Shown piece by piece: positions 43,318 through 57,386 of a stretch of 64,000 bases of DNA (the first letter of the stretch is position 1; every line of letters begins with the position of its first letter). The notes beneath the pieces are model-generated. The model searched no databases, was not told the DNA's origin, and saw only the letters and a list, made by a program, of their open reading frames with translations. This DNA is from an uncultured Candidatus Rokubacteria bacterium (GTDB lineage: Bacteria > Methylomirabilota > Methylomirabilia > Rokubacteriales > DASRDR01), in the NCBI GenBank assembly GCA_963805625.1, contig CAWDVE010000010.1, positions 2,112,001 to 2,176,000 on the forward strand, in the 5' to 3' direction. Both the position numbers and the translations under genes were made by a program.

Positions 43318-45213
43318 ATGAGTGCGGCGTGCGTATTCGCGCGACGGAGTTCCTCATCCCGCCGGCAGTTTCCGCGCTTCATCCTCGGCCTTCTCATCTT
43401 TGAGCTGGCGCTCTCGGTCAATGGGGGCCTTGCCCTTGCTCATGGCCCCTCACCTTCTGGACCCAACCCGACCGCGGATAGTCTCACCAACACGCTGCTC
43501 GCCCTGAGTGCGCAGCATCGACAGGCAAGCCCCGCCCACAAGGCCCAGATCGAGAGCCAGCTCCTCGCCACCGCGACCGCCCGCTATCAGTTCCTGGCGT
43601 CGCTGATCGAGGACGACCCGGGCGAGGTGTTGCGGGTCGCCTTGCCCGCCGCTCTCCGGGCCGCGCTGCCACCCGCGGTCAGAGCTTATGTCGAGGAAGA
43701 GGTAGAGGCCGAGGGGACCCTGGAAGTTCTGCATGCGCACCAGGACGGCGGCAGCCGCTATCTCTACTTCCTCGACACCGCCGCCGAGCGGCTGTCGCTC
43801 CACTTCGCGGCCGATCCACCGGAGCTCCAGACCGGCTCTCGGGTGCGGGCCAGGGGTATGCACGTCAGGGGAGCGCTCGCGCTCGGCTCTGGCAAGGGCA
43901 ACGTCACGACGGTCTCCCCGGCTGTCTCGAGCACCCGGGGGGAGCAGCGCACCCTTGTGATCCTCGTCAACTTCTCGGACGACCCCACGGAGCCCTACAC
44001 GCTCGACGAGGCGCGGAGCGTTGTGTTCGCCACAACGAGCCAGTTCTTCCTGGAAAACTCGTTCGAGCAGACGTGGCTCACGGGCGACGTCGTGGGCTGG
44101 TACACCATCCCGCTCAGCGTGACCGTCTGCGACTCTTCCACACTCGCCTCCCAGGCCAAATCGGCCGCCTCCACGGCCGGTGTCGACCTAACCGCGTATA
44201 CGCGGTATGTCTACGCCTACTCCAACGCCTGTGGAGGGTTGGGGCTCGGGACGGTGGGCGGCAATCCCTCCCAAGCCTGGATCAACGGGAGCCTTGATCT
44301 TAGCGTGCTCGCCCACGAGCTCGGCCACAACCTGGGGCTCTACCACTCGCATGCGATGGACTGCGGAAACCAAGTGCTCGGTCCGAGCTGCACCATCTAC
44401 GAGTACGGCGACAGGTTCGATGCCATGGGCAACATTGCCGCCGGCCACTTCAACGCCTTCCACAAGGAGCGTCTTGGCTGGCTGAACGCCGAAGCCTCAC
44501 CCCAGATCACGACGGTCCTGGCCGGGGGCACGTACACGCTCGAGGCCTACGAGCGCGCTGGCTCGGGGCCGAACGCGCTCAAGATCCTGAGATCAACGGA
44601 CCCGAGCACCGGGAAGCGGACCTGGTACTACGTCGAGTCCCGCCAGGCCATCGGCTTCGACGGATTCCTGGCCGAGAACGCGAACGTCGTGAACGGGGTT
44701 CTCATCCACACCGGGTCCGAGTCGAGCGCCGACAGCAGCTACCTCCTGGACATGACCCCCGCGAGCGGGAGCTTGGTTGTCTATGACTGGCGGGACCCCG
44801 CGCTCGGGGTGGGCCAGAGTTTTTACGACCCGGAGTCGGGCGTCACTCTAACGACGGACTGGGTAACGGGGACCGAAGCGGCGGTGACGGTGCGCTTCGA
44901 CACACCGGTCGTGACTGCAGAGTCTATGACGATCTCAACGGATCAGGCGAGCTACACGGTGGGGCAGTCCGTCTCCATCACGGCAACGGTGCGGTCCGGG
45001 GACTCACCTGTCCCGAATGCCAACGTGACGTTCACGGTCACCAAATCGTCGGGAACCGTAACCACGGGAAACGCGACCACCGGATCCAATGGCAAGGCTG
45101 TGTACAAAATGCGGCTGAAGAGGCAAGATCCGGTCGGAATCTATCAGGCAGGTGCCGCAGCCTCGAAGGACGGCCAGTCGGCAAGTGCCATCACCAGCTT
45201 CGCGGTGCAGTAG
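43318..45213 (+). CDS. Secreted metzincin metallopeptidase (M11/M6-like) with C-terminal Ig-like domain
   Basis: Signal segment; LVILVNF, HELGHNLGLYHSH, EYGDRFDAMG, HKERLGW, YYVESRQ; STDQASYTVGQSV domain. Confidence 0.85.
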   Translation: MSAACVFARRSSSSRRQFPRFILGLLIFELALSVNGGLALAHGPSPSGPNPTADSLTNTLLALSAQHRQASPAHKAQIESQLLATATARYQFLASLIEDDPGEVLRVALPAALRAALPPAVRAYVEEEVEAEGTLEVLHAHQDGGSRYLYFLDTAAERLSLHFAADPPELQTGSRVRARGMHVRGALALGSGKGNVTTVSPAVSSTRGEQRTLVILVNFSDDPTEPYTLDEARSVVFATTSQFFLENSFEQTWLTGDVVGWYTIPLSVTVCDSSTLASQAKSAASTAGVDLTAYTRYVYAYSNACGGLGLGTVGGNPSQAWINGSLDLSVLAHELGHNLGLYHSHAMDCGNQVLGPSCTIYEYGDRFDAMGNIAAGHFNAFHKERLGWLNAEASPQITTVLAGGTYTLEAYERAGSGPNALKILRSTDPSTGKRTWYYVESRQAIGFDGFLAENANVVNGVLIHTGSESSADSSYLLDMTPASGSLVVYDWRDPALGVGQSFYDPESGVTLTTDWVTGTEAAVTVRFDTPVVTAESMTISTDQASYTVGQSVSITATVRSGDSPVPNANVTFTVTKSSGTVTTGNATTGSNGKAVYKMRLKRQDPVGIYQAGAAASKDGQSASAITSFAVQ

Positions 45214-45350: not shown

Positions 45351-46685
45351 CTAATCCCCCGCCTTCGCACGCTCGAGCTGTCGCTGCAACACGCTGGCGA
45401 ACTGCTCGGTGGGACGTGCGCCAACCAGGATGAAGGGCGTCTCGCCGCGAAACAGGACGAATGTGGGGACCGTCCTGACGCCGATGCCCTGCCCGTCGTA
45501 CAGATCGCGAAGCACGCGCTCCAGGGCCTGCCGGCTTGCCAAGCAGGCGGCGAACCGGGCCTTGTCGAGGCCGAGACTCGCGGCGATTTCTGTCAGCGCC
45601 GTATCCGGATCCTCGCCATTTGACCACTGCTCCATCCGCTCGAACAGCAGGTGATGCATGGGCCAGAACTTGCCTTGATCGCCAGCACATTTTGCGGCGC
45701 TGGCCGCCGCCGGGGCACGGTTGTGGATCCCCCCCAGGGGGAACTGCTTGACGACCCATCGAATCTGTCCCGTCTCGATAAAGCGCTTGGCCAGTTCGGG
45801 TTGGGTCGTCAACTCGTGGCGTTGGCACGGGGGGCACTGAAAATCCACGAACTCCACCATCACCATCTTGGCGTCCGGACTACCCTTGTATGGATCCCCG
45901 GCGACCGTGAAGCCCGGGCGCTTCGGATCGGGCGCCAGGCCCTCCGGCTTGGCCCAGAATGGCAACTCGACCTTCTGGGCCGGCTGGGCCTCTTCCGTCT
46001 TGGGCGGCTCCTTGCCGGCCAGCAGGTCGTCGATCCATCGCGTGAAGACGTCGACGGGCTGGGCCCCGACCAGCGTGTAGGTCTTACCGCTCGGTCGGTG
46101 AACGAACTGGAAGGTGGGCGTCCCGTTGAAGCCCAGGGCCTGCCCCGCCGCCACACTCTGTTGCACGAGGGCCTCATGGCGGCCCGAGGCCACACACTGC
46201 TCGTACGCGGTCATGTCGGCACCGGCCTTCTGGGCGACCTTGGCTAGGAAGGGCCGGGGATCGGGCAGCCGGTTCCACTCCTGCTGGGTTTGAAACAGCA
46301 CATCGTGCATCTGCCAGTACCGACTCGCCCCCTGCTCGCCCACACACCGAGCGGCCACGTGGCCTCTCGGCGCCATGGGATGCAGGCCAACGAGCGGAAG
46401 ATCGCGAAGCACGAACTGCACCTGCCCCGGCCGGACATACTTTTCCAGGAGAGCCGGCAAGGTCTCGCGGGCGTACCGCTCGCAGAACGGACAAAGATAG
46501 TCGGTGTACTCCACCAGGGTCAGTGGGGCGTCCGGATTCCCCCGAAAAGGATACCCGTCGGAAGTGAAACCAACAGGCATCCCCTGATAGGTCTCCAGGA
46601 CCGCGGCGTGCGCGGCACTGCTCCCAATGAACCAGACAGCCGCGAGCGAGAGCCAGAGCCAGCGTCTCCAATGTCTCGAATTCAT
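45351..46685 (-). CDS. Secreted tandem two-domain DsbA-like thiol-disulfide oxidoreductase
   Basis: Signal peptide; EYTDYLCPFC..GTPTF and EFVDFQCPPC..TVPTF; GAGGAG RBS. Confidence 0.9.
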   Translation of the reverse strand: MNSRHWRRWLWLSLAAVWFIGSSAAHAAVLETYQGMPVGFTSDGYPFRGNPDAPLTLVEYTDYLCPFCERYARETLPALLEKYVRPGQVQFVLRDLPLVGLHPMAPRGHVAARCVGEQGASRYWQMHDVLFQTQQEWNRLPDPRPFLAKVAQKAGADMTAYEQCVASGRHEALVQQSVAAGQALGFNGTPTFQFVHRPSGKTYTLVGAQPVDVFTRWIDDLLAGKEPPKTEEAQPAQKVELPFWAKPEGLAPDPKRPGFTVAGDPYKGSPDAKMVMVEFVDFQCPPCQRHELTTQPELAKRFIETGQIRWVVKQFPLGGIHNRAPAAASAAKCAGDQGKFWPMHHLLFERMEQWSNGEDPDTALTEIAASLGLDKARFAACLASRQALERVLRDLYDGQGIGVRTVPTFVLFRGETPFILVGARPTEQFASVLQRQLERAKAGD

Positions 46686-46772
46686 GGTCTCCTCATAGGT
46701 TAGCCGTTACCACGGCCAACCTCATCGCCACTGCTCGTCCAGGTCATGTCCTGGACGTCGAACAGCCCTCCC

Positions 46773-46803
46773 GCTAGCCCGGCGTCTCGGACGCCGGGCT
46801 AGC
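46773..46803. terminator. 14-bp perfect hairpin between the Cys-rich gene and the dsbA-like gene (partial terminator or mRNA stabiliser)
   Basis: GCTAGCCCGGCGTC-TCG-GACGCCGGGCTAGC; no U tract. Confidence 0.6.
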
Positions 46804-46901
46804 CCGGGAGGCGTCATGGACTTGACGCACCAACGCGCGACCGGGTCGGCACGCCCGCGTTGCGGAGCGCGCCGCCCGGTCGCCGGATCGCGACGGCTCG
46901 A

Positions 46902-48461
46902 CTACGGGATCGTCGTGGTCACAGTTACCGAGGCGCTACCGGACGGTGAGGACTGCACACCGTCATCATCCGTCACGCCGCCCGTCACCCTGTCCGTGTG
47001 CGTGAAGCTGCACGACGTACTGACGATTTTTCCCACGAACTGACAGGTGTAGTTGCCACTCTGTGCGATGGTAGCCGGCAGCGTTCCCGGCCCCGGCGAG
47101 GCCTGGCCACAGCTCGTGCTCACCACCTGTTCGCACGTGGCCAACACTCCGCAGTCGGTATTGGCCGCGTGCGTCGCTGCGATGTTGCCGAACTTGTTGT
47201 CAGTGAGCGTACTCAGCGTCAGTGTATCAATTGCCGACTGGTTGCTCACCACGACCTGATACGTCGCGTCCAGCTGGCAATTGGCAGCAGACTGCGCTGT
47301 CTTGGCCAAGGTCGGTGTCGCAGACACGTTCTCGATCCCTACGTCCGCGTCGTCGTCATCGCACACTGCGGCGTTGTTGGGAGTCTGCGTTCCACAGACC
47401 TCGACCGTGTCGGTGACCGTCGTACCGAAATCCCCCGACACGAATGCCTGGAACTTACACGTAGCGCTGCCGCTCGGAGCGAGCACGACACCGATCAGGT
47501 CGGGGCAGCTGAAGTTTGAATCGAAGGTGCAGGCATCAGGCGTCGTAGCGTTCGGCTCACCTACCCCGCACGCCGAAATCGCGCCCAGGTCACCGTACAG
47601 ATCGTCCTGGATGCTGCTGATGGTCACGGACTCGACCAACGAGTCGTTGGTCACCTGGACGGTGTAGGTCACCGCGCCGCCCGTCTCGGGCACGGTGGCC
47701 GGCGACGCACTCTTCACCACTGTGATTTCCGCCTCCTCGACGGTGACCGGGACCTGGAAGGTGTCATCACAAACGCACTTCGACTTCGTGTCCGGGGCGA
47801 AGGACGGGGTAGGGGCATTCGCGTTGATGGTAGCGTTTATGCTGCAAACCGTGCCCTGATTGCTGTGCCAACTGGTGCAGTTGGGCAGGTTCAGGAAGCC
47901 ATCGCCGTCGGAGTCCTGGCATAGGACGTTGGGGATCGTGAAGGTCAGACCAGGCGGATTGCCGTCCACAGGATCGGGGTACGTGCCGGCATTGAGGTCG
48001 CCGCAGGTATCACCATCCAGCTGCAGTACGGGCGAGTTAGTAGGGGGAGGAGCCGCAAGCCTGCTGAGCGAACATGTCCCCAGCCTGGCATTGGCACCGC
48101 CCGCGGTGTTGAAGAAAAAGGCGGCGTCATACCGGGCGTTGGCAGTCACGATCGTCTCGAACGTCGCCGTCAGGGTGAAGTGTGTGCCCGAGGTGCAGGT
48201 GTTAGGCGACACACTGAGCGCGCGGGAAAGCCTGATGTCGTTGGCCGTACAGTTGAGTTTATCCGAGTTCGGGACCGGCTCAGCGGTGTGCCCCGAGAAG
48301 ACCGTCTGCATGCAGACCGTGTCGGGTGTCGTCTGACCGCTGACCGCCGACGCCGGCTGGGCCATCAGGAGAAGCCCGCTCACCGCCAGGACCCCGAGCA
48401 GAATGGGGAGCAGTCTCGTGGGCAGGTGTGAGAGTTTAGTTCGACATGCGCCTGCTTTCAT
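46902..48461 (-). CDS. Secreted Cys/Thr-rich beta protein with two DUF11-like Ig repeats
   Basis: Signal ending AQPASA; 22 Cys counted in the mature part; repeats ITVVKSA..VTYTVQVTN..DDLYGDL and TLAKTA..ATYQVVVSN..DNKFGNI. Confidence 0.85.
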   Translation of the reverse strand: MKAGACRTKLSHLPTRLLPILLGVLAVSGLLLMAQPASAVSGQTTPDTVCMQTVFSGHTAEPVPNSDKLNCTANDIRLSRALSVSPNTCTSGTHFTLTATFETIVTANARYDAAFFFNTAGGANARLGTCSLSRLAAPPPTNSPVLQLDGDTCGDLNAGTYPDPVDGNPPGLTFTIPNVLCQDSDGDGFLNLPNCTSWHSNQGTVCSINATINANAPTPSFAPDTKSKCVCDDTFQVPVTVEEAEITVVKSASPATVPETGGAVTYTVQVTNDSLVESVTISSIQDDLYGDLGAISACGVGEPNATTPDACTFDSNFSCPDLIGVVLAPSGSATCKFQAFVSGDFGTTVTDTVEVCGTQTPNNAAVCDDDDADVGIENVSATPTLAKTAQSAANCQLDATYQVVVSNQSAIDTLTLSTLTDNKFGNIAATHAANTDCGVLATCEQVVSTSCGQASPGPGTLPATIAQSGNYTCQFVGKIVSTSCSFTHTDRVTGGVTDDDGVQSSPSGSASVTVTTTIP

Positions 48462-48515
48462 CTCTAGCCCCTCACGCGGGTGTGAGCTTTCGCCATTCGA
48501 CTCTCACACCGCTTC

Positions 48516-48590
48516 GGCGCTCGCTGGCGCTCGGGGTTGGGCCTCTCGGTGGGCCTCTGGGCGGCTCTCGGGGAGCTCTGGGATGCCCTC
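48516..48590 (-). promoter_or_regulatory. Cluster of six GAGNNCC motifs (Com-type RNA binding sites) in the 5' leader
   Basis: mRNA: GAGGGCATCC-CA-GAGCTCC-CC-GAGAGCC-GCCCA-GAGGCCC-ACCGA-GAGGCCC-AACCCC-GAGCGCC-AGC-GAGCGCC. Confidence 0.7.
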
Positions 48591-48729
48591 AGCGGGGCTT
48601 TCGTAGCTACGCGGGTGAGAGCCCGGTGAGCCTCCTTCCGGTGCGAGCTGTTCCGCAGTTGCGTCAAATGAACACGTCGGTCCGGCGGCCGGGTGCAACG
48701 GCTCATGGAAGCGCCGCGGCGGTCACGCT

Positions 48730-49482
48730 CTAACCCACATCACGGCATTCGACCGTCCTCGCCGGTTGGGCGCCGGGCCCTCCAGGGCGCTGCTCCGCGG
48801 CCGTGGCATCCCTGCGCGACGTCTGACCCATCATGCTCGCCAGGGCCTCTTGGAATGACACGGGGCCCAGCGAACCCCCGTTCTCCGTTATGGAGAGCCG
48901 TCGGCGCTCCGTCGACTTGCTGCCGATCTTCGCTCCCGGTCTCGACGCTCCGGACGCGGCGGAGGAGCGCGAAGCCCCCGCAGCGTACGCGAGCGGCGCT
49001 CGCCGCGCCCGCTGTTCGGGCGATGCCCTCAAGCTCGTGCGGGAACCTGACGCGAGGAGGGCCTGCCGAACGCGGTGCGCCAGGAACCGGGCGGTTTGCG
49101 GAGACACCCCCAGCCGCCGGTCGAGCGTGGCGCCGCTGAGGCCATTGTGAGACCGACAGAGATGCGCGATCGCCAGAAGCCACTTGTTGAGCGAGACGTG
49201 ACTGCTCTCGAACGCGGTCCCGACGGTCACGGTGAACTGGCGGCGACACGCCTTGCACTTCAGGACCCCGGCGCGCGCCGGCCGAACTGAAGCGTCCTTG
49301 GCCTGCAACCGATAGGCTCCAGCGGAGCCACAGTGCGGGCAGACGGGTCCCCCCGGCCATCGCACCTGCTCGAGGAACGCCCGGGCAACGTCTTCCGGAA
49401 GGAACGCCGCCGACGAAGCCGCAAGACCCCTGGGATCCAGCATCCTTGTACGCGCCAAACGTCTGGCTAACGCTCGGGCCAA
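48730..49482 (-). CDS. IS1595-family transposase N-terminal (Zn ribbon + HTH) protein lacking the DDE domain (start uncertain)
   Basis: ARAFLEQVRWPGGPVCPHCGS..KCKACRRQFTVTVGTAFESSH..KWL..LGVSPQTARFLAHRVRQAL; no following VExDET motif. Confidence 0.8.
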   Translation of the reverse strand: MARALARRLARTRMLDPRGLAASSAAFLPEDVARAFLEQVRWPGGPVCPHCGSAGAYRLQAKDASVRPARAGVLKCKACRRQFTVTVGTAFESSHVSLNKWLLAIAHLCRSHNGLSGATLDRRLGVSPQTARFLAHRVRQALLASGSRTSLRASPEQRARRAPLAYAAGASRSSAASGASRPGAKIGSKSTERRRLSITENGGSLGPVSFQEALASMMGQTSRRDATAAEQRPGGPGAQPARTVECRDVG

Positions 49483-49555
49483 CCGCCTGCACCATCGCGG
49501 AGACCCGCGGTCGCCGGAGGGCGGGGAATCGACGGACAGACGCCTGCTTCGGTGC

Positions 49556-49834
49556 TCACGGCACTGCGCTCCGGAGCCCGCGACCCTTCTCCGCGCCGCT
49601 CAGGGCGCTCGGAAGAGCCGCGCGGGCTGGAACTGGCCGAGTGGCCTCGATCGAGCTCGGTCGGGGCATGCTCTCAGCTGCGGGCCGAATGATCTCGAGG
49701 TGCGGCCGTCCGCACTTCGGGCACTTCAACTCCAGGATGACCTGTCCCGCCTGGAGCTCGTTGACGAAATCGCCGAGCCGGCGGTTACACTCCCTGCAAC
49801 GGACCTGCGTCTGGGTCGCCGCGCCCACGGTCAC
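49556..49834 (-). CDS. Mu Com-like zinc finger regulator
   Basis: VRCRECNRRL..ILELKCPKCG matches the Com pattern IRCxxCxKLL..IEIKCPRC; low-complexity tail. Confidence 0.72.
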   Translation of the reverse strand: MTVGAATQTQVRCRECNRRLGDFVNELQAGQVILELKCPKCGRPHLEIIRPAAESMPRPSSIEATRPVPARAALPSALSGAEKGRGLRSAVP

Positions 49835-50727
49835 CGCTCCACTCCGTCTACATGCGAGTGGCGCCCCTTACTCTGAGCACGGCGACCGCAAGCCCACAGC
49901 AACGCTGGTGTTTCGGTCTCACGGTCACCAGTGACGCGCCGACAGGGAGGCAGTTGGTAACTGGCCTGGGGCTGAGTGTCAACACCCTTGACACAGCTCG
50001 CCACACTCGGTCTCACCGTTACGTTACTCCGTGAGACCAGGATGGTTCCGGTGCAAGCCGAAGGCCTTTAGGCAGAATGCTTGTCGCATGTCTATGTGGC
50101 GCGGCAGAGGGGTGCAAGATTCGAACCGATACGGGATACGGGTTTTCACACTGTTCAAACGGTCGGCGACCAGGCCGTCTTCTTCCCATTGCTTCCCATT
50201 GCTTCTCTATACATGTACGCGTGCGACGCGTCTCGGGAAGCGCTGAGAGCCTGGCAAATGGACCATTGAATCTGTAACTCACATTCCTCTCATCAGAAAG
50301 TCACTACTATGTCATCAGGAAAATCATTACCCATGTCTATCAATCGCTTCCTGCATCCAATTGGCCTTCGGGGAAAGATCCATCCACTGGCGCTCGGGAA
50401 ACTATCACGGCACATGAACACACTCCAGCAACAGCGATCTAGGCGCTAGAGCCTCGGCTTTTCCCGGGATCTTGTCAAGAGCAAGATCACAAACCCAGAG
50501 AAGCCCGGTTCCTCTGGCCCTGCGCTAGTTGCCAAACCCACCAGTCGATCATCGGGCGTCAGAGCCGCGTCTGTCGCCATGTCGCGGACCTCGGGCGATG
50601 ACCGCAAGTTCCGCTACCGCTGCCAGCACGCGTATTACCGGGGCCGACCGTCTGCACGAACCGGCGTCCGCTCGGGATGCTCGCGACGAACGAGGCGGTC
50701 CAAAGCGCATCGTTTTCTTACTCTTTG

Positions 50728-55948: not shown

Positions 55949-57386
55949 TGTCAAGCCATCTAAGAAAGATACCGAGGGGTGAATCGTCGAGCCATCTAAC
56001 ATGTAACCCTCGGAGACCGAGCCTGGGGCCGGCGTAGGTGGTTGGCAAAGGTGAAGTCCGGGGTGCCGGGCGGGCGGCCCGGGTGCGGCTTCGGCGGTGC
56101 CGGGATGATGGGCGGGAAGTTCGCCGCCGTGGGGATGGGCACGCCCGCCACCCGCGCGGGCGTGGCCAAGGCGACGAGCCGCTCGATCTTCCGATCGATG
56201 GCCTCGGCCAGGACGAAGGGATCCAGCTGATCGCGTAGGCGGACGAGTTCGCGCACCGCCTGGGAATCCGCCTCGGGGCAGCTCTGGACCCGCTCGAGGG
56301 GCGTGCGCGGAGCATCGTAGTGACGGCGCAACCGCGCGCCGACCCGTTCCTTGCTGAGGAGTTTGACCGACGGCAGGAAGAGGTTGTGCAAGAGCCGGAG
56401 CTCGTGCCGATAGAGCGCATTCAGCGCGGTCACCGCCGCCGGCGTGTCGTAGCGCCAGTAGCCTACGAGCTTCCGGACGTGCGTCCAGTTCTTCTGCTCG
56501 ATGTGGGCGTTGTCGTCCTTCTTGTACGGTCGGCCGCGTGTGAACTGGATCTCCTGCGCCTGGCAGTAGCGGTAGAGATGATGGTTGATGAACTCGGACC
56601 CGTTGTCGGAGTCGATCCCCCGGAGGCGGAAGGGCAGGACCTGCCGGATCTCGTCCAAGGCCGTCTGGACGCCGCGTTCGCCGCGGCCGAGGACCGCCCG
56701 GGTCTCCACCCAGGTGGTGTGGATGTCCGTGACGTTCAGGGAATGGGCGAACTCGCCATCGGCCCGATGGCCCGCATGCGCGACCAAGTCCAGCTCGGTG
56801 AAGCCCGGCACGGTCACATCCCAGTGATCGGTCTTCAGCGGAATGTGGTGCTTGAGGAGAGTGCCCGGTCGGGTCCCGCCATAGCGGCGCGTCGTGCGCT
56901 GCCGCTTGGTTGCGGCCAGGCGCCGGTCGATCTGGCGGGGGCTGATCGCGCGGAGCTGCTGGCACACGGTGGCGGACAGCCGGAGGCGCCGGCGTGCCCA
57001 GGGCAGCCACAGGGGGAGCAGCGCCTTCAACCGCACAGACCAGGGATACCCCGCGGCCTCCCAGATCGCGGTCAACGCCTGGATCACCGCCAGCCCGTAC
57101 GTGGCGGGGCGCCGCCGACGACGGGGCCGCTCGGGGCCCGGGGGCGGCCCGTTGAGAAGCCGCAGCGCGTACTTGCGCTGGTAGCCCGTGGTCTCACAGA
57201 ACTCATCGAGGATCCTCCCCCGCTCGACCCGGGCCGCGCCCCGGTAGCGCGGGTAGACAGCCGTGAGGACCTCCCACCGCGCACGGCGACTCATCATGTA
57301 ACCCTCCTCCGGCCACGGGGCCCTCGAGGGTTACATTCCAGATGGCGCGTCTCTTTCCGCTCGGTAACATTTTAGATGGCGCGATA
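55949..57386 (-). mobile_element. Insertion sequence of about 1.44 kb with imperfect terminal IRs and duplicated subterminal motifs
   Basis: Left TGTCAAGCCATCTAAGAAAGATACCGAG versus right (revcomp) TATCGCGCCATCTAAAATGTTACCGAG; inner copies at 55991-56011 and 57326-57346. Confidence 0.82.
55996..57297 (-). CDS. DDE transposase with integrase core (ISNCY-like, family not firmly assigned)
   Basis: PGFTELDLVAH, IDSDNGSEF, RPYKKDDNAHIEQKN, TPLER. Confidence 0.9.
   Translation of the reverse strand: MMSRRARWEVLTAVYPRYRGAARVERGRILDEFCETTGYQRKYALRLLNGPPPGPERPRRRRRPATYGLAVIQALTAIWEAAGYPWSVRLKALLPLWLPWARRRLRLSATVCQQLRAISPRQIDRRLAATKRQRTTRRYGGTRPGTLLKHHIPLKTDHWDVTVPGFTELDLVAHAGHRADGEFAHSLNVTDIHTTWVETRAVLGRGERGVQTALDEIRQVLPFRLRGIDSDNGSEFINHHLYRYCQAQEIQFTRGRPYKKDDNAHIEQKNWTHVRKLVGYWRYDTPAAVTALNALYRHELRLLHNLFLPSVKLLSKERVGARLRRHYDAPRTPLERVQSCPEADSQAVRELVRLRDQLDPFVLAEAIDRKIERLVALATPARVAGVPIPTAANFPPIIPAPPKPHPGRPPGTPDFTFANHLRRPQARSPRVTC

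Follow-up and report, generated by a model that had tools for sequence, protein, structure and literature searches.

Com, the small zinc-finger protein of phage Mu, is in use as an RNA-tethering tool. Protein-dependent attenuators are represented by the ANTAR dual-hairpin, BglG/RAT and TRAP leaders, and the maturation gene of MS2 is under the kinetic control of a long-range pairing over its start site. From work on Mu com-mom, Com is known so far as a single phage translational activator (PMC6483171); in the motif selected for it, GAGNNCC(N)2-3GAGNNCC, it recognises CC(N)2-3GAG within the loop of a hairpin (PMC6483171). No published description of a cellular, multi-hairpin Com system was found in the literature covered, outside which most subscription journals lie.

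The locus described here lies in a stretch of 64,000 nt, called the window throughout and always meant at its full length. A preliminary description had noted two mutually exclusive RNA pairings around the ribosome-binding site and start codon of a gene directly 3' of Com-type sites, and had read them as an on/off switch analogous to the translation-inhibition structure that Com remodels in Mu mom mRNA. The observation itself was confirmed; its interpretation as a switch is supported in part.

Genes of the Locus

The com-like gene, the leader and the target gene are all carried on the minus strand, where a 92-aa ORF is followed by an IS1595-type ORF, a roughly 270-nt leader, the 519-aa ORF and a DsbA-like gene (Table 1). 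The 92-aa ORF scores 14.6 bits against PF10122 (Com), below the cut-off of 22.9. It matches phrog_6417 'translational regulator' (E 4e-7), a match seen for 26 of the 28 members of its family; its match to phrog_13819 gpCom is weak (E 0.034), and the NCBIfam Com model gave no match to it. The JGI name 'phage FluMu protein Com' is attached to 5 of 28 close homologues, the nearest of which (P0002-P0008) are 88-98% identical, and a wider homologue search returned 83 representatives at E <= 0.001. The predicted protein model is a four-strand ribbon (pLDDT 75), with no fold match at E <= 0.001.

Table 1. Positions in the window of the genes, hairpins and pairing segments discussed in the text
Feature	Position	Strand	Remarks
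Com-like CxxC...CxxC zinc-finger ORF, 92 aa	49556..49834	-	Core lies within the first 53 aa; putative RNA-binding regulator
IS1595-type zinc-ribbon/HTH ORF	48730..49482	-	PF12760, E 8e-16; between com and array
Upstream arm of CUCAC type (helix D)	48615..48622	-	Third possible partner of the switch segment, from folding; part of 14-nt near-duplicate
Hairpin h1	48585..48598	-	Stem GCCC/GGGC; same stem in 11 of 11 leaders folded
Hairpin h2	48564..48576	-	Stem GCUC/GAGC; a single compensatory U-A to C-G change relative to homologues
Hairpin h3	48540..48555	-	Stem GGCC/GGCC, 8-nt loop; C-G, U-G and U-A at one pair among homologues
Helix G, 5' arm	48529..48537	-	9 bp with 48399-48391; overlaps start of h4
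Hairpin h4	48517..48530	-	Stem GCGC/GCGC; holds the two GAGCGCC sites
Switch segment GGUGUGAGAGU	48500..48510	-	Shared 5' arm of A and B; read as 48510-48500
10-codon mini-ORF	48464..48496	-	Begins in loop of hairpin A, stops 2 nt before main AUG
3' arm of local hairpin A, CUCACACC	48479..48486	-	8 Watson-Crick pairs
Shine-Dalgarno (SD) region	48468..48475	-	5' arm of helix E; GAGGGG 48473-48468; AUG at 48461
Hairpin E (predicted), 48 nt	48428..48475	-	Buries SD and AUG; -13.3 kcal/mol
Coding-region arm ACUCUCACACC	48425..48435	-	3' arm of helix B or E; B has 11 Watson-Crick pairs
Helix G, 3' arm	48391..48399	-	In signal-peptide codons
Proposed target gene, 519-aa cysteine-rich protein	46902..48461	-	Signal-peptide-like N-terminus; weak DUF11/DUF7507 matches
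DsbA-like thioredoxin gene	45351..46685	-	Downstream; domain match

No transposase catalytic domain was detected in the IS1595-type ORF, and its N-terminal part is 54-65% identical in homologous loci, where it is also found just upstream of the array (L045, L048, L050); the zinc-ribbon/HTH protein may be a domesticated DNA-binding protein. In relatives, a DsbA-like gene is positioned upstream of the array. Phage structural genes were not encountered among the seven neighbours scanned. An M11-type secreted metallopeptidase-like gene (43318-45213, plus strand) converges on the operon, and a transposase gene with an integrase core (rve; 55996-57297, minus strand) lies 6 kb upstream. Some 260 nt ahead of the com-like gene, the minus strand at 50127-50097 resembles by eye the 3' half of a tRNA, from T-arm to CCA; ARAGORN called no tRNA within the window. 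The piece is possibly an integration scar, in keeping with the patchy distribution of the cassette.

A lone Com-type hairpin sits at the end of the com-like ORF (49564-49551, minus strand) and is followed by the same five bases as h4. GAGNNCC words are present in relatives between com and the next start codon. Two of the relatives (L048, L055) have a structured leader and a terminator-like strong hairpin with a U-run some 60-100 nt upstream of the com-like start, which suggests a second attenuation layer ahead of the com-like gene. Some 30 nt ahead of the array (48638-48630, minus strand) is a strong SD-like word to which no clear start codon belongs; it recurs at the same place in L008, L009, L045 and L051; upstream of it is a TTGAC hexamer (48667-48662) without a good -10. 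Promoter-like sites were not called anywhere in 46500-50400.

The cargo protein has 454 homologues at E <= 0.001, the best of them about 60% identical. The family, at least 454 strong, consists of cysteine-rich secreted proteins, and its named members include some in Binatia and Entotheonellia. The cargo protein gave no tblastn match in 13 homologous loci, whose cargo genes differ, and it was not found in the other 250 phylum genomes or in the viral contigs and plasmids searched.

Distribution of the Cassette

The com-like gene is patchily distributed, being present in 4 of 251 phylum genomes, and the array is carried by the same four com-bearing genomes and by one more (G052). Relatives occur in a Rokubacteria genome and in a betaproteobacterial genome, which makes a Rokubacterium the likely host. 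Array and com are directly adjacent in L056 and L057, with the array 3' of the gene; in a sample of the family of L057, the com-like gene was found in one of 201 genomes, namely L057's own. L059-L064 contain no array. Six distinct homologous leaders have downstream sequence: the L045 type (which includes L046, L048 and L058), the L009 type (which includes L047, L049 and L050), L051, L052, L056 and L057. The leader of L008 stops at a contig end.

The phage cases are L065, L096 and L110. Pattern matches in viral sequences numbered 23, of which 20 were discarded as chance matches or simple repeats; a Com-like gene was found only with L096, L110 and L088, the last being the same contig as L065. 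In phage L065 (2501-2580), a com-like gene, two hairpins and an overlapping terminator precede a scaffold-like gene, and in L096 and L110 (near 1501), a classical Com gene is accompanied by one hairpin immediately before SD and AUG.

The Hairpin Array

Six GAGNNCC words are gathered at 48578-48516 (6 in 70 nt), forming the densest cluster in the 7.27-Mb genome, where the runner-up has 5. These words agree with the selected Com motif, and the predicted fold of the leader places them in four 4-bp hairpins. The bipartite motif with a CC(N)2-3GAG loop is fitted in full by h2 and h4; h1 keeps the loop with changed outer bases, and h3 has a longer loop. All four stems pair, and their complementary middles differ between hairpins. 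A formal covariation count over five distinct rows found 59 of 59 cells paired with one two-sided change. As this is the only such change and 82 of 500 shuffles did equally well, the array shows little covariation. Judged from these sequences, the conserved part of the locus is a Com-type hairpin array downstream of a small Com-like zinc-finger gene.

Two related GAGNNCC-rich stretches occur elsewhere in the genome, on C17 near 165970 (minus strand) and on C11 near 23082 (plus strand), the latter adjoining a tRNA-like fragment. There are no further copies of the leader or of the com gene elsewhere in the genome, and no Rfam covariance model scored near its gathering score in 48000-50500 or in eight homologous loci.

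Pairings Around the Start Codon

The start codon on which the proposal hinges, AUG 48461, is the right one, as homologous leaders and signal peptides align there. Its SD duplex with the genome's own 16S end has an energy of -6.9 kcal/mol. Alternative starts at 48446 and 48365 were dismissed for a weaker SD, the wrong frame or loss of the signal peptide. The mini-ORF that ends just before the main start has a weak SD (an anti-SD duplex of -3.8 kcal/mol versus -6.9 for the main start) and is probably not used; in four of six homologues the last 80 nt contain no AUG.

All the coordinates in the preliminary description check out on the minus strand, and GGUGUGAGAGU does begin 5 nt past the last GAGCGCC (48522-48516). 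Both of the helices claimed, the 8-bp A and the 11-bp B, exist in the sequence, and because they share a 5' arm they are mutually exclusive. The first five bases of the 3' arm of A can alternatively pair with 48475-48471 in a weak helix, C. Of the genome's 3,444 crude gene starts, 7 carry a perfect helix of at least 11 bp spanning the AUG, and a single one, the 48461 start, combines it with a competing 8-bp upstream partner; both parts of the pattern were reproduced in none of 3,000 dinucleotide shuffles. When G-U pairs are allowed, an enclosing helix of at least 11 bp occurs at 33 of 1,200 starts, so that the rarity is one of perfect complementarity. The overall duplex energy at the 48461 start is unremarkable, with 23% of starts as low.

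A contig from run X2, which is possibly not independent of the assembly, is identical to the window over 48330-48628, which argues against an assembly error. A contig from run X6 covers 48425-48599 with 11 substitutions. The only RNA run, X20, reaches parts of the com region and, at 80-90% likeness, two short pieces of the cargo gene, with the leader outside its coverage; nothing from run X1 aligned.

The preliminary description had looked to covariation in homologs, and there A and B find none, since the pairing is absent from all six distinct homologous leaders. B-like helices rich in G-U pairs in L009 and L051 (8-9 bp) were dismissed, as 310 and 133 of 1,200 genome starts match them. Inspection by eye led to the dismissal of a small inserted element with the 11-bp inverted repeat at its ends: there is no target duplication, and the interior aligns with the SD region of relatives. 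A 14-nt near-duplication links 48609-48622 with 48474-48487, and CUCAC occurs four times and GUGAG three times between 48630 and 48379, with three more such words upstream of com; the seven words in the leader thus offer additional competing pairings. Clusters of these words (at least 5 in 205 nt) number 8 in the genome.

The coding arm specifies signal-peptide residues K9-L13. A TKFxHL-like stretch is common to about 20 of 119 cargo homologues, with S, W, R, L, C, A, G or Q as x; homologues with a TKFxHL N-terminus include P0111, P0117, P0123, P0126, P0145 and P0159. The residue matching S11 varies freely and the motif is pairing-compatible in 10 of 119, which indicates that the amino acids predate the helix or ignore it. 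The codons of the arm include rare ones (AAA, 0.12 of synonymous use; UCA, 0.06-0.07), and their third bases all pair.

Competing Folds and the Effect of the Hairpins

The bistability claimed for the leader is borne out in prediction, A spanning 0.01-0.84 and B 0.03-0.93 across 45 fragment settings, and the balance between them cannot be fixed by calculation. The predicted energies of the two folds, -32.0 kcal/mol for A+E and -33.5 for B, lie within 1.5 kcal/mol of each other, and the barrier between them is about 18; for a start from A alone, the barrier is 2.8 kcal/mol towards E and 7.7 towards B. When the 1-nt deletion of X6 is modelled alone, without X6's other changes, the balance moves to A+E (0.99), a shift that is uninformative in the absence of those changes. 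Helix E pairs 48475-48469 with 48434-48428 and places the AUG inside the stem of a closed hairpin. Helix G, which the preliminary description lacks, encloses B and forms a physical link between B and the fourth Com hairpin; as its 5' arm overlaps the start of h4, G and h4 are mutually exclusive.

These folds do not bear out the labels on and off at equilibrium. Hairpin A, when formed, frees the coding arm to pair with the SD as E, and A+E is therefore more closed than B: the SD opening cost is 8.2-8.8 kcal/mol in A+E versus 4.6 in B, and that of the ribosome footprint 17.2-17.6 versus 13.4, so that the supposed on fold buries the start deeper than the supposed off fold. The claim that A leaves the ribosome-binding site free holds before 48435-48428 is transcribed and fails afterwards, when the arm pairs with the SD; A is thus open only briefly. 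The likeness to the Mu inhibition structure survives in that a predicted hairpin, E, holds the start codon, but the Com sites neither adjoin nor overlap it, h4 ending 41 nt before E.

Binding of Com was mimicked by forcing all four hairpins in the folding, with pairing and opening costs as the readout. On an RNA ending at 48445, the forced hairpins cut the footprint opening cost by 2.9-4.9 kcal/mol in eight of nine settings and by 0.8 in the ninth, because the C-rich hairpin arms otherwise pair with the G-rich SD. Once the coding arm is present, the shift in footprint opening is of inconsistent sign (-3.1 to +1.6 kcal/mol over 45 settings). On long fragments with no span limit, B drops from 0.93 to 0.21-0.50 because G is lost, and on long fragments E is lifted from 0.01 to 0.35-0.97 in many settings. 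Nascent RNA with its 5' end at 48635 shows slight or no opening of the SD (0.29 to 0.43; 0.50 to 0.44). That Com remodels the start in particular did not stand up against grafts of 150 genome starts behind that array, among which the effect is ordinary (an effect of 2.0 kcal/mol, with 35% of controls as large; an effect of -0.1, with 59%), and the ribosome-binding site of the window is occluded no more than is usual among them. As the effects do not exceed those of controls and nascent RNA from 48635 opens little, coupling of the array to the start in the window is, on these folding models, possible only.

What Follows the Array in Relatives

In L045, L051 and phage L065, folding yields a stem with a U-run that shares its 5' arm with a Com hairpin, which is h3 in the two bacterial leaders and, in the phage, the last of its hairpins. 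With the hairpins forced, terminator pairing falls in all three (L045, 0.85 to 0.20; L051, 0.81 to 0.02; L065, 1.00 to 0.34). There is no such effect in L009 and L052 (0.73 to 0.71), in which the SD forms 8-9 bp with one arm of h2, and L056 and L057 have short SD-masking hairpins after the array, with no U-run. A simple terminator scan of three relatives made a call at the corresponding place in L051 only, and in the window no intrinsic terminator overlapping the Com sites was called. The modelled terminators of the relatives imply an activator logic.

Explanations for the Leader

The explanation that we put first, at a probability of about 0.4, is a lineage-specific translation switch controlled by Com, which would act during transcription and would have replaced the terminator of the relatives. 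The Com-like zinc finger encoded upstream would bind the four-hairpin array, and the output would be the start of the secreted-protein gene. When the protein is absent, the G-rich SD of the nascent mRNA would first be masked by the C-rich arms of the hairpins, and the RNA would then collapse into a long-range cage of B and G, melting h4 and enclosing SD and AUG. When it is bound, the hairpins would be held closed, G blocked and the SD kept clear of the hairpin arms, and the nascent RNA would stay in hairpin A while a ribosome loads before the coding arm emerges. Because A is open only on nascent RNA, control would be kinetic and not a flip between open and closed equilibrium folds. We infer the binding, the direction and the timing of Com control alike. 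The density of the array, the unique A/B pattern, the near-equal energies, the lower footprint opening cost on RNA that stops short of the coding arm and the activator logic of relatives speak for this switch; the six of six leaders without A/B, the inconsistent sign once the coding arm is present, the ordinary effect relative to controls, the greater closure of A+E than of B, the lack of a terminator effect in L009 and L052, the thin covariation, the PF10122 score below the cut-off and the lack of a fold match at E <= 0.001 speak against it.

A close rival, likewise tentative, is that the Com array is real and A and B are incidental, having arisen from local duplication and from the linking of the array to a different cargo gene, in which the codons of the signal peptide are complementary to the spacer by accident; the array would then act otherwise, through SD masking by its arms or RNA stability, or would have lost its output together with the terminator. 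Such an origin would account for the retention of A/B in none of the six distinct homologous leaders, for a coding arm that is part of a TKFxHL-type motif compatible with pairing in just 10 of 119 homologues, for the 14-nt near-duplication (48609-48622/48474-48487), for the eight CUCAC/GUGAG clusters in the genome and for a Com effect not above that of grafted controls. It sits less well with a pattern seen at 1 of 3,444 starts and in 0 of 3,000 shuffles, with rare codons in the coding arm whose third bases all pair, and with fold energies as nearly equal as a switch requires. A control of opposite sign, in which A+E is off, B is on because the SD there loses the coding arm to the switch segment, and the Com-like protein is a repressor that disrupts G and B, seems improbable even though the opening costs (8.2-8.8 against 4.6 kcal/mol for the SD, 17.2-17.6 against 13.4 for the footprint), the lower barrier from A to A+E (2.8 against 7.7 kcal/mol to B) and the rise of E under forced hairpins (0.01 to 0.35-0.97 on long fragments, many settings) all point its way: these energies leave out the steric penalty that a ribosome would pay to load within a closed loop of 64 nt, the terminators of relatives imply activation, and Mu Com is an activator (PMC6483171). 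We consider it very unlikely that the CUCAC/GUGAG words serve as half-sites of a DNA operator, for instance of the zinc-ribbon/HTH protein encoded upstream, or that they belong to a second ribosome site with translational coupling through the mini-ORF. The seven copies in 48630-48379, the three upstream of com and the geometry of a mini-ORF ending 2 nt before the main AUG would suit such roles, but the spacing between words is not constant, nothing promoter-like was called in 46500-50400, the SD of the mini-ORF is weak (-3.8 kcal/mol) and four of six homologues lack an AUG in the last 80 nt.

Comparison with Known Systems and Significance

The proposed Com-controlled switch shares with Mu com-mom a small zinc finger with four cysteines whose gene lies upstream on the same strand, 4-bp hairpins with CC(N)GAG loops that are formed by bipartite GAGNNCC sites, and a predicted hairpin that buries the start codon, E being the closest analogue of the Mu translation-inhibition structure. 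It differs in having four hairpins where Mu has one short hairpin, in sites that lie about 40 nt from E and are connected to it only via long-range helices, in a target that is a secreted DUF11-like protein and not a DNA-modifying enzyme, in the lack of a phage structural gene in the seven neighbours scanned and in a protein that scores below the Pfam cut-off. As the site is not beside the inhibitory hairpin and the target is not one of DNA modification, the locus is set apart from membership of the Mu com-mom type. The exclusion of a terminator stem by a small hairpin in L045, L051 and phage L065, and the tandem protein sites, recall the ANTAR, BglG/RAT and TRAP attenuators, whereas the leader of the window has no terminator and both protein and motif are unrelated to theirs. 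As in the MS2 maturation gene, the start would be accessible only until the downstream partner is made and the RNA refolds; in contrast to MS2, the timing is proposed to be set by a bound protein, and there is no sequence relationship.

It is conceivable, if on balance rather unlikely, that soil bacteria have domesticated a Com-like zinc finger and use the four-hairpin pad much like the aptamer of a riboswitch, with exchangeable outputs: an antiterminator, SD masking or, here, a kinetic switch with signal-peptide codons as one arm. The A/B flip is the least secure part of the picture, being real in the sequence and without comparative support, and the array with its exchangeable outputs merits more attention than this single flip. 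If the proposal is true, a cellular, multi-site Com with transcriptional and translational outputs would widen the role of the family, and an uncultured soil lineage would have provided a small, testable protein-RNA switch.
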